From: Gemmatimonadaceae bacterium
Lineage (GTDB): Bacteria > Gemmatimonadota > Gemmatimonadetes > Gemmatimonadales > Gemmatimonadaceae
Direction of reading: 5' to 3'
Length of the DNA stretch: 64,000 nt
NCBI GenBank assembly: GCA_045803545.1
Contig: JBJMOW010000005.1
Coordinates: forward strand, 224,001 to 288,000
Below, in pieces: positions 5,174 through 30,941 of the stretch. The notes beneath the pieces were generated by a model. The model was not told the origin of the DNA. It saw only the letters and a program-made list of their open reading frames with translations, and made no database searches. How positions within the stretch are numbered: the first letter of the stretch is position 1; each line of letters begins with the position of its first letter. The translations under genes and the position numbers were made by a program.

Positions 5174-5387
5174 CTGCGGATCTAGAAGCGCACTACCTCG
5201 CTGGTAGCAGATAGCAGCTGGCTATTAGCTATTCGCTGCAAGCGACGGGACAGGTCGCGATGGAGTCAGAGGAAAAGCGTTCAGTGCGCCTTTATGCGAT
5301 GAGATCTGTCCCGTTGGCAGGCAGCCATCAGCCAACAGCTTGCTGCTAACAGCTACCAGCGCGGCCGCTCGCCTTTCAGTTCGCGGT
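5174..5387. repeat. Palindromic intergenic element family B, copy 2
   Basis: Same 20-bp left flank as copy 1. Arms CGCTGGTAGC.../...GCTACCAGCG, inner stem CGACGGGACAGGTC/GATCTGTCCCGTTG. Confidence 0.8.
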
Positions 5388-17262: not shown

Positions 17263-17277
17263 TAATGGAGTTTATGA

Positions 17278-17403
17278 GCGGGAAGCGGGAGGCGGGAGGC
17301 GGGAGGCGAGGCGCTAACCAAAAAAAGGTCGCCATATATATGCGCGACCTCGGCTCAGATACTGTAGAAAATAGGGTCGCGCTTCCCGCTTCCCGCTTCC
17401 CGC
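17278..17403. repeat. Palindromic element with inverted GCGGGAR heptamer arms
   Basis: (GCGGGAR)4 at 17278-17305 and (TTCCCGC)3 at 17383-17403 enclose an inner AGGTCGC..GCGACCT hairpin. Confidence 0.8.
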
Positions 17404-17855: not shown

Positions 17856-18044
17856 CTAGGTGTGACGGGTGCGGCGGTTCTTACGCATCGCCGTGTTCAG
17901 CTTGCGCTTCCTGCGCTCGCTCGGCTTTTCGTAATGACGGTGCTTGCGGAGATCGGAGAGTATACCCGCCTTCTCGCATTTCTTTTTGAAACGCTTCAGC
18001 GCGCGCTCAAAGTTCTCGTCGTCATGGATTATGACTTCCGACAA
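17856..18044 (-). CDS. rpsU: 30S ribosomal protein S21
   Basis: ENFERALKRFKKKCEKAGILSDLRKHRHYEKPSERRK. Confidence 0.97.
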   Translation of the reverse strand: MSEVIIHDDENFERALKRFKKKCEKAGILSDLRKHRHYEKPSERRKRKLNTAMRKNRRTRHT

Positions 18045-18100
18045 AATCTGCTTCCCCCCTTCTTGGCGAACGTCTTCGCCGGTTTAGGCCTAGACGGCTA

Positions 18101-18129
18101 AACTTAGGCCTCGTAGAGGGTTGGGTCAA
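18101..18129 (-). promoter_or_regulatory. Sigma70-type promoter for rpsU
   Basis: Minus strand TTGACC (18129-18124), 17 nt spacer, TAAGTT (18106-18101). Confidence 0.7.
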
Positions 18130-18140
18130 GCAAACTTCGA

Positions 18141-18542
18141 CTGCGGACTTTGCGCGGTGGCCCGATCAGTCGGCGGAGTATAGGGTTGCCGGAGCTTCTC
18201 GCCGCGCCTGTTCGCAATCATTGTCGTCGGATTCCGAGCAGAGGCGCGGCTGCGCGACCTCCGGCAACCCTACACTCCGCCTCCTTCCCTGAACTTGCGC
18301 GCGTGTCCGTCGGTTCGCTTGGCCCAAACCTCCACGCGCCCGCGACATGCGGGCCGAGCGAAGCTCGGCGCGCCCGCCAAGAAGAGGGGCAGCAGGAGCG
18401 GGAGAGGCTGGACACTTACAGATCGCGAAGGGAGGCGAGGGACTTCCGTGAAAAAATTCGCAGACCCGCCCGTCTCAGATCGCCTCTCACACGGCAGTCC
18501 GACAGTAGCGGGTCGAGTTTTTTTCAGGGAATGTCCCTCGCC
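18141..18542. other. Structured non-coding region with three consecutive long hairpins (candidate ncRNA or composite palindromic element)
   Basis: Stems at 18172-18281 (23-bp outer stem), 18294-18381 and 18434-18542; no credible ORF. Confidence 0.6.
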
Positions 18543-18558
18543 GACCCAAAACGAGATA

Positions 18559-18906
18559 TCAGCCAGGCGGCCAGGTCATTTTGCGTCCGCCGAGCAAGTG
18601 CAGATGCAAATGATCCACGGATTGACCACCGTCAGCTCCGGTGTTGATCACGACTCGATAGCCGGTTTTCGCGATGTGCTCCTGGCGCGCAAGAGCGGCG
18701 GCGAGGGTCATCATCCGACCGAGCAGGTCCGAATCGGTCACGTCATCCAGCGACGGAAAGTGCGTTTTCGGGACGATCAGAATGTGCGTTGGAGCCTGCG
18801 GGGCGATGTCGCGGAAGGCGATCAGCTCCTTGTTGTTGACCAGAGTCTTCGACGGGATTTCACCGCGAATGATTTTGCAGAAAATGCAATTCCTGGTGTC
18901 AAGCAT
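18559..18906 (-). CDS. Histidine triad nucleotide-binding protein (HinT-like)
   Basis: CIFCKII, AFRDIAPQAPTHILIVPK, GGQSVDHLHLHLLGGR. Confidence 0.94.
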   Translation of the reverse strand: MLDTRNCIFCKIIRGEIPSKTLVNNKELIAFRDIAPQAPTHILIVPKTHFPSLDDVTDSDLLGRMMTLAAALARQEHIAKTGYRVVINTGADGGQSVDHLHLHLLGGRKMTWPPG

Positions 18907-23883: not shown

Positions 23884-24050
23884 GAGACTGAGGCCTGAGG
23901 AGTAAGTGCATCAGAGACTGAGGCCTGAGGACTAAGTGCATCGATCATCGCGGACTAAGTGAGGATTGCGGACAACCGAGGATTCACTCGTGGTCCTCCA
24001 TCAGCAATTAGTCAGCAATCATAGATGCACTTGGTCCTCGGGCCTCAGTC
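23884..24050. repeat. Palindromic element family A, copy 3, with duplicated left end
   Basis: 30-bp tandem GAGACTGAGGCCTGAGGASTAAGTGCATCR (23884-23943); right arm GATGCACTTGGTCCTCGGGCCTCAGTC. Confidence 0.85.
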
Positions 24051-25998: not shown

Positions 25999-26164
25999 AC
26001 TGCGGACCAACGAAAGGTAGGCAGGAAGCAGAGTGCTCAGGGTAGAGTTTGCAGCTATGTGCGTGGCGTTTGAGACGAACGGAACCAGGAATGACAAGAT
26101 CAACGCTGCCACCTGCCTGCTGACCATGTCTGCAACCTGCCTACCTTTTGTTGCAGTGCGCAGT
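25999..26164. repeat. Long imperfect palindrome (element C)
   Basis: CAACGAAAGGTAGGCAGG (26008-26025) / CCTGCCTACCTTTTGTTG (26136-26153), with ACTGCG...CGCAGT termini. Confidence 0.75.
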
Positions 26165-30705: not shown

Positions 30706-30767
30706 TCCCCTGTTCGCAATTCGGCCTTAGTTTGCTCTTGGTGGTTGCCTGTTGCTCCGATTGAGTT

Positions 30768-30911
30768 AGTCCGAGGTGCGAGCTAAGTCCGAGGTGCGAG
30801 CTAAGTCCGAATTGCGAGCCGCCTTCGAGATGCGAGCCCGCCAATGATAGCTTTTGGTTAGTTCGGACCTCGCAGCGGGTTCGTAACTCGGGCTTAGCTC
30901 GCAACTCGGAT
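30768..30911. repeat. 18-bp tandem repeat plus inverted copy (element D)
   Basis: AGTCCGAGGTGCGAGCTA x2 plus a degenerate third unit; inverted partner CTCGGGCTTAGCTCGCAACTCGGAT at 30887-30911. Confidence 0.8.
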
Positions 30912-30941
30912 TCACTATCCGATCGAGGTCACCTTACGACG

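Follow-up and report, generated by a model that had tools for sequence, protein, structure and literature searches.

What kind of element is the block of hairpins, some 400 nt long, that separates a HIT-family gene from the gene for ribosomal protein bS21 (rpsU) in this Gemmatimonadaceae genome? A preliminary description of a 64,000-nt stretch of contig JBJMOW010000005.1 (the window, in which plain positions below are counted) had drawn three hairpins, H1 to H3, at 18141-18542 and offered two answers: an undescribed noncoding RNA or a composite hairpin element. The second answer holds. The block is one copy of an apparently undescribed, repeated palindromic DNA element of soil Gemmatimonadaceae, in which two inverted units enclose a spacer, and at many sites that spacer is an imperfect reverse complement of the adjoining host DNA.

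Anatomy of the element between HIT and rpsU

Both neighboring genes lie on the minus strand, and the locus is laid out as follows.

17856-18044, minus strand: rpsU (bS21), TTG start; TIGR00030 above cut-off
18048-18068, minus strand: ribosome-binding region of the host rpsU, a mirrored flank
18101-18135, minus strand: putative host rpsU promoter, a mirrored flank (TTGACC at 18129-18124, 17 nt, TAAGTT at 18106-18101)
18155-18557 (ends approximate): whole composite, unit B, central spacer and unit A, delimited by alignment to this genome's other copies and to genome G014
18160-18290, minus strand: unit B (formerly H1), an imperfect palindrome of ~135 nt with its purine-loop face on the minus strand, tandem GA/GA closure and the mini-hairpin word GCGCAGC at 18249-18255
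18291-18419: central spacer (formerly H2), degenerate and reverse-complementary to the rpsU promoter and leader, plus a scaffold hairpin of the family
18313-18336: -35 mirror, pairing with 18112-18135 of the rpsU -35 region; matched change in G014
18353-18369: scaffold mini-hairpin GCCGAGC-GAA-GCTCGGC, shared across unrelated loci, in 11 of 26 composites
18375-18395: Shine-Dalgarno mirror, complementary to 18048-18068 at 19 of 21 positions
18420-18557, plus strand: unit A (formerly H3), the inverted homologue of unit B, beginning at the HIT stop codon, with its purine-loop face on the plus strand
18559-18906, minus strand: HIT-family gene, its stop codon abutting the element; HinT-like models match below their cut-offs

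Which of the proposed stems are borne out? H1 has its arms at 18172-18194 and 18259-18281 (23 nt, one mismatch) and H3 at 18434-18456 and 18520-18542, as first described. Two things had been overlooked: H1 is homologous to H3 (an HMM joins H1 and the reverse-complemented H3 as palindromic units of ~140 nt), and "H2" mirrors the rpsU promoter and ribosome-binding site. The element covers about 18155-18557, and its partner sequence at 18048-18135 lies outside the interval first given. Imperfect pairs had been thought to be mostly G-T on the plus strand; for H1 this fails, because its mismatch is A-C on the plus strand and G-T on the minus strand, on which H1 also folds better (RNA folding energy, -81.9 versus -73.5 kcal/mol on the plus strand).

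The fold of 18141-18560 beats all 100 shuffles (z = -6.2 on the plus strand), and that of 18030-18560, which includes the rpsU leader, reaches z = -10.4 on the minus strand. When the flanks are included, with pairing probabilities computed for both strands under RNA and DNA parameters, 18375-18395 is predicted to pair with the rpsU Shine-Dalgarno region (p = 0.89-0.94) and 18313-18336 with the -35 region (p = 0.73-0.83). The scaffold mini-hairpin faces the -10 region, which has no mirror. Two further pairings proposed earlier, a 12-bp stem in H2 (18314-18325/18351-18362) and an alternative fold (18278-18295/18420-18437), exist as complementary sequence, but both have a pairing probability of 0.0 on either strand once the flanks are present.

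We infer the rpsU promoter from conservation: the promoter and Shine-Dalgarno pattern is present in 23 of 25 orthologous gaps, including those that are empty of the element. A consensus promoter scan called 0 promoters in the region, and promoter or terminator signals in the element region did not rise above chance. All orthologues seen have, at the positions corresponding to 18042-18068, the TTG start, a conserved G-rich Shine-Dalgarno sequence and a small leader hairpin. The gap between HIT and rpsU also varies in other ways: at one locus (L038), the element has shrunk and is preceded by ~1 kb of extra DNA that holds an apparent gene, and two others (L042 and L051) have an unrelated 600-nt insert in common.

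A family of paired units at gene ends

How widespread is the element? BLAST and nhmmer searches for further copies had been proposed, and this genome does hold more copies of H1 and H3: by HMM there are 12 units at seven loci, six of which are inverted doublets with a spacer (one partner was seen only in a separate comparison). Two further loci (C4:354.5k and C2:675.4k) carry other unit types, for nine loci in total, and unit length ranges from ~90 to 165 nt. Within units, 24 of 30 base pairs have changed on both sides and 94.5% of alignment cells pair, above 500 of 500 shuffles and slid controls, in a set of 19 units from genomes G000, G014 and G030 that are kin and hence not independent.

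An exact 19-nt motif of the element matched 121 stretches of GTDB contigs, of which 79 were listed; we retained 60 whose titles read Gemmatimonadaceae, Gemmatimonadales, Gemmatimonadetes or Gemmatimonadota and set aside the 19 from other taxa. A 25-nt motif yielded 78 metagenome loci, and two patterns searched against viral contigs gave 0 matches. A covariance model of one unit type matched in 79 of the 109 genomes of the genus, with 1-29 matches per genome among at most 29 candidates scored, and in 7 of 151 genomes and 4 of 77 genera family-wide. Matches in one such genus (g144) are shorter units of like build, likewise paired beside gene ends, and their mirror is weak at three composites (best p, 1/128 and 5/128). 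A class-wide pattern search allowing two mismatches returned background counts (mostly 0-3) except in genome G090, with 24; that pattern is too strict for diverged units of the kind that the covariance model detected in other genera. Genomes flagged as unpublished supply three loci (L044, L220 and L231) and some rows of the tallies, and no conclusion hangs on them alone. At one locus of another genus (L426; genome G426, genus g142), element and flank are nearly identical to those of L085 and L329, which points to transfer or mis-binning; another (L274) shows a tandem duplication within the element that starts from the scaffold hairpin and repeats half of unit A and the first part of the spacer.

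Searches against Rfam agree with the early remark that no 6S, SRP, RNase P or tmRNA motif was recognizable. The window gave only tRNAs, relaxed thresholds added only hairpin matches to miRNA models at one-fifth to one-third of their gathering scores, and six homologous loci gave 0 matches; no ribozyme, intron, 6S, SRP, RNase P, tmRNA or TwoAYGGAY covariance model matched. Within the incomplete coverage of these sources, the family is absent from Rfam and from the literature searched. Genome-wide in G000, the Rfam model found no 6S RNA, and tmRNA and tRNA-Sec are present.

Where do the copies sit? Most adjoin stop codons. At 56 of the 78 metagenome loci, an ORF of at least 100 codons ends within 110 nt of unit A, mostly at 27-48 nt, a tally in which two ORFs look like antisense frames. 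Many sites are convergent gene pairs; others, such as HIT-rpsU, recX-alaS and ftsA-ftsZ, are codirectional. Among sampled loci with enough flank, 100 of 112 fall into 18 recurrent flank clusters, some of which may be a single site split. Filled, decayed and empty alleles occur at orthologous sites: between HIT and rpsU, the element or a remnant is found at 23 of 30 best-hit loci and is missing from 7, and at a second recurrent site, HD-desaturase, it is present in 28 of 30 (a biased set, as the query came from a carrier) and in 6 of 19 of a set in which most genomes are more distant. Several types of unit interior interchange at one site, and in G090 two loci have one spacer in common; therefore whole composites can move or convert. 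In four gaps that lack the element (L226, L343 and L353 at HD-desaturase, L041 at HIT-rpsU), a hairpin of another family is present.

These distributions leave the idea of an undescribed noncoding RNA, taken as one transcript, without support, because the units are dispersed (single, paired or with interiors deleted, and missing at orthologous sites of relatives) and because the two units carry their structured faces on opposite strands.

Is there an enzyme that could move the element? An early suggestion was that homologues might flank IS200/IS605, IS110 or IS1182 transposases; neither IS200/IS605, IS110 nor any other transposase was found beside a copy. Target-site duplication is likewise not apparent: the longest direct repeat averages 5.2 versus 5.1 in the control (64 composites, whose ends are fuzzy). 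Neighbors assigned by Pfam (73 of 98 listed ORF pieces) are housekeeping genes and one HNH gene, with no transposase of a cognate autonomous IS among those 73, and no copy encloses a gene in the loci examined. The HNH gene (L108:3388-4032) converges on one copy and is not enclosed by units; nor is an ORF with an apparent resemblance to Uma2-type nucleases, whose start lies on the right-hand side of unit B in the alaS-side copies of L086 and L235.

Profile searches of this genome, whose 93% completeness bears on any absence, gave no match for RT (RVT_1), for DUF559 (in a search that covered five genomes), for the IS110 DEDD recombinase (PF01548, also missing among the neighbors) or for the Y1 transposase of RAYTs (PF01797). 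Y1 matches occur in 12 of the 109 genomes of the genus, and no unit lies beside these 12 loci, bar one partial match of 11 bits. A Y2 profile had no match in a search whose controls were equally silent. The GIY-YIG matches listed lie mostly in long frames, with no unit at the 30 loci examined; SbcD gave one match, below cut-off. One element lies ~1 kb from a four-helix-bundle gene and does not flank it. GC skew at the loci is noisy with respect to leading and lagging strands.

The window also contains seven more long hairpins in intergenic DNA, which have short-period arms and belong to families other than the present one (355-470, 1005-1139, 5196-5364, 17277-17397, 23886-24050, 26008-26153 and 30764-30916), and a genome scan listed 138 long hairpins, units of the mirror element among them. 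Four-helix-bundle genes (PF05635; nine matches in the genome) sit in the loops of other palindrome families at L181, L182, L183 and L185 (G000 C4:457k, C5:27k, C4:382k and C6:61k). Because PF05635 genes occupy such loops, the gene-less hairpins of these other families look like emptied cassettes; we found no paper on four-helix-bundle genes within palindrome loops in the literature searched. Near profile position 52 the four-helix-bundle match is split into two frames both in G000 (L185/L188, C6:61.4-61.7k) and in G090 (L388, C5:601k), either by a shared frameshift or as a split gene.

A spacer that mirrors its host flank

How closely does the spacer follow its surroundings? In the window copy, comparison of the spacer with the reverse-complemented rpsU flank gives a score of 50 (shuffles: mean 18.6, maximum 35, 0 of 3,000 as high), and that flank is the spacer's best nonself window among 113,838 in the genome. 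The opposite side of this copy has no mirror (z = -0.9). Empty sites carry the same promoter and Shine-Dalgarno sequence; hence the flank belongs to the host, and it is the spacer that has been copied from it.

The pattern extends to other loci. If a composite is laid out as left flank, unit A, spacer, unit B, right flank, spacers of 26 composites score 34.5 against their right flank and 27.3 against their left, versus 21.5 against the flanks of other loci; 13 of 26 are significant on the right and 8 of 26 on the left (p ≤ 0.02), and same-strand scores equal the control. A further 38 composites score 28.2 and 27.0 versus 21.6, with 13 and 8 of the 38 significant. These trials include orthologous loci and, as with all mirror and copy statistics here, related genomes, which are not independent. 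On either side taken singly, about half of the composites lack a significant mirror. Where genes converge, the spacer mirrors coding 3' ends.

Does the spacer track its own genome's flank at a given site? At HD-desaturase, the spacer matches its own right flank better than it matches, on average, the flanks of other genomes in 16 of 17 cases, and its own left flank in 12 of 17 (0 of 5,000 permutations on each side). At HIT-rpsU, tracking holds in 12 of 16 rows, one of them without an element, and column-wise covariation in a set that includes an element-less row is not significant (164 of 2,000, p about 0.08). The G113 spacer has a perfect 23-nt complement in 1 of 54 desaturase 3' ends, its own; the other ends differ from this run at four or more positions.

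The copy is inexact in a structured way. Longest perfect mirror runs are at most 13 nt in all 64 composites (median, 8), mismatches occur at all bases and favor G/C in the spacer, and three scaffold words recur at unrelated loci (in 16, 11 and 11 of 26 composites). Recurrence of these words and the shortness of the perfect runs led us to set aside an exact, one-off copy-back at insertion. Within the HD-desaturase mirror, a noncomplementary stretch of 14 nt is conserved across genomes, and spacer divergence there is 0.34 versus 0.41 at four-fold sites (11 genomes); together, the conserved unpaired stretch and low divergence look like selection. G-T wobbles in the mirror show no strand bias (57 versus 49 on the right, 26 versus 25 on the left).

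Origin and meaning of the mirror

Does the element act as RNA or as DNA? In 40 of 49 cases, the more stable fold of unit A lies on the strand antisense to its gene; for unit B, the opposite strand gives the better fold in 14 of 18. Each unit has one face with purine-rich loops, read from the center outward. Of 147 distinct units, 123 and 116 have GA on the two sides of the 2x2 loop, the 3x3 loop has GTA, GCA or GGA opposite GAA, GTA, GCA or GGA, and GC-GNA-GY occurs 157 times versus 48 in shuffled sequence, with all four N used; C-GNRA-G occurs 137 times versus 210 shuffled, and cUUCGg once. GA/GA and GNA/GNA internal loops are found in RNA also. GCGNAGC is raised in spacers too (48 versus 28). 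Hairpins of this type are described, in the available part of the source, as extraordinarily stable in DNA and much less so in their RNA counterparts (PMC13037366). Thus, an early hint at single-stranded DNA, taken from one GCGAAGC word, gains weight from the loop statistics: DNA-type loops, no excess of GNRA and no strand-biased wobble favor folded single-stranded DNA as the working form, in counts that share ancestry. Conservation of the loops suggests that a protein once recognized, or still recognizes, one strand of each unit; our searches turned up no such protein.

On balance, we lean toward a nonautonomous palindromic element, akin to REP doublets or BIMEs, whose spacer is rewritten by fold-back template switching; we infer its copying and conversion steps from their products. 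The units would fold while DNA is single-stranded, during replication or repair, and each hairpin would keep the spacer and the host DNA, which lie on its two sides, in register. Template switching on the folded-back strand would then write patches of flank into the spacer; flanks being genes or promoters, changes would survive only within the spacer. Self-paired scaffold hairpins would loop out and escape overwriting, and ectopic gene conversion between conserved unit ends would exchange interiors. Any effect on rpsU or on mRNA stability would be a by-product. Mirroring extends to the -35 region, which is of no use for pairing in an rpsU leader, and this argues for template switching. It speaks against this reading that recent copying should leave more long perfect runs, yet nearly all runs are short. 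Template switching can create and repair stems, according to the accessible portion of one report (PMC8794818); therefore covariation within units is no proof of RNA.

Could selection instead keep the spacer as an RNA clamp? Read-through mRNA would fold the spacer onto the last ~60-100 nt of its gene, protecting the 3' end, and would mask the antisense stretch that enters a convergent gene; at rpsU, the Shine-Dalgarno sequence would be hidden on hrcA-dnaJ-prmA-rsmE-HIT transcripts and not on those from the rpsU promoter. Placement after stop codons, the imperfect, bulged duplexes, and the conserved unpaired stretch with spacer divergence below that of four-fold sites are all consistent with this, and the passages available report effects of REP and MITE hairpins on mRNA (PMC3733652). 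The predicted probability that the Shine-Dalgarno sequence is unpaired is 0.52-0.78 in short leaders versus 0.12 with the mirror; however, it is already occluded (0.19) in read-through RNA ending before the mirror. The corresponding sites of many relatives are without the element, the transcribed strand has no wobble bias, unit A is the better folded antisense to its gene, and the loops are of DNA type with no enrichment of GNRA, so that we think a clamp rather unlikely. Four RNA runs were used, out of 17 at a share of 0.05-0.09, in which the organism is not shown to be present; their contigs, from relatives only, cover rpsU/yqeY and leave 18140-18509 without coverage, which counts neither for nor against transcription.

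A third possibility, which we hold doubtful, is guide-directed homing. The spacer would be a pair of guides that match both target flanks on single-stranded DNA, and a putative trans-acting enzyme would read the unit loops and reinsert or repair the element, with guides adapting site by site in the manner of intron EBS sequences or IS110 bridge loops. Fixed scaffold words do alternate with site-specific complementary segments, the same few sites are occupied, patchily, across distant subclades, the strand-discriminating loops are near-invariant, and one spacer is common to the two G090 loci. However, the loci examined yielded no enzyme and no gene-bearing copy, nor did viral contigs, and RT, IS110, Y1 and DUF559 have no match in this genome; the complementarity is 50-100 nt long and missing on one or both sides of many copies, and descent also explains recurrent sites. 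Similarly speculative is a mobile or self-restoring element adapted to its site, with two protein-read single-strand hairpins and a guide that it writes itself from 50-100 nt of host DNA on each side, with which the guide would then pair. The folded locus might then be a rod capped by two hairpins, its guide serving homing or repair through a putative enzyme, which seems to us no less of a long shot.

A single structured noncoding RNA or an rpsU-specific riboregulator would fit the very stable folds, the covariation within units, the Shine-Dalgarno mirror kept in many HIT-rpsU orthologues and the translational regulation of rpsU indicated for other phyla in the partial literature available, but is highly improbable given eight other loci in this genome with unrelated genes alongside, structured faces on opposite strands, 7 of 30 HIT loci without the element, no promoter or terminator signal above chance and no Rfam match.

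How does the element preferred here, a template-switched palindromic doublet, compare with known systems? Like REPs, BIMEs and REPINs, it consists of extragenic imperfect palindromes in inverted pairs with structured spacers, near the 3' ends of convergent or codirectional genes, and like REP families with the tetramer CGTC it has no dedicated transposase, as far as the available parts of these sources go (PMC3733652, PMC3337134). REP units are 20-40 nt long, in contrast to 90-165 nt here; their copies number in the hundreds, versus tens at recurrent orthologous sites; and RAYT genes are flanked by repeats, whereas none was found for this element. REP tetramers (GTAG/GGAG or CGTC) stand at the foot of the stem; here, GTA, GCA or GGA followed by G precedes the inner stem, within the 3x3 internal loop. 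REP spacers have complementary ends or stem-loops and are not described, in the portions available, as complementary to host flanks. The consensus sequences of the REPs treated in PMC3733652 could include a relative. Like bacterial MITEs and long palindromes (Correia, ERIC, YPAL, RPE, CIR and Nezha), as partially available, it is 100-450 nt long, noncoding and strongly folding, with inverted ends around a noncoding core and filled and empty alleles (PMC3184786). Unlike MITEs, it showed neither a target-site duplication nor, in the loci sampled, a cognate IS; its "ends" are whole hairpins of 140 nt, and its core is site-specific and mirrors the flank. In placement the element resembles REP dimers and MITEs, but it departs from them in unit size, RAYT and target duplication.

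TwoAYGGAY of Pseudomonas (RF01731) is also multicopy and structured, with variable copy number and often divergent doublets ~250 bp apart, and a mirror of the flank is not described in the accessible part of its report (10.64898/2026.09.22.753630). Unlike TwoAYGGAY, the present element has no RF01731 match and has GNA-type loops. Quasi-palindrome template switching offers one-step reverse-complement copies and stem repair (PMC8794818, PMC7202029). It fits the lineage-specific 23-nt run; in the partial sources, though, it is known as mutation of individual sites rather than as a characteristic of a dispersed element family that acts over 50-100 nt of neighboring genes. Guide-bearing elements differ from ours in that no ribozyme core, RT or recombinase was found for it. 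Group I internal guide sequences, group II EBS, IS110 bridge RNAs, IS608 guide tetramers and DGR repeats all have internal sequence that matches flank or target and varies by site; the group I and II, IS110 and IS608 guides measure 4-15 nt and belong to systems that include a ribozyme core, RT or recombinase. DGR repeats are direct copies that change at adenines only, whereas this copy is inverted and changed at all bases.

What would such an element mean? In the available parts of the REP and MITE literature searched (PMC6006769, PMC3337134, PMC3733652, PMC3184786), we found no description of this family or of a flank-complementary spacer. The trait missing from that literature is a repeat whose interior turns into a reverse complement of the neighboring gene or promoter, whatever that may be. 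If it is written by template switching, these genomes hold a natural record of the process at many sites in many genomes, from which its rate and tract length are measurable, and strong covariation beside ribosomal-protein genes need not mean a noncoding RNA. If it acts as RNA, it would be a new way of clamping mRNA ends or uncoupling genes; if the spacer is a guide, it would be a new programmable targeting system.
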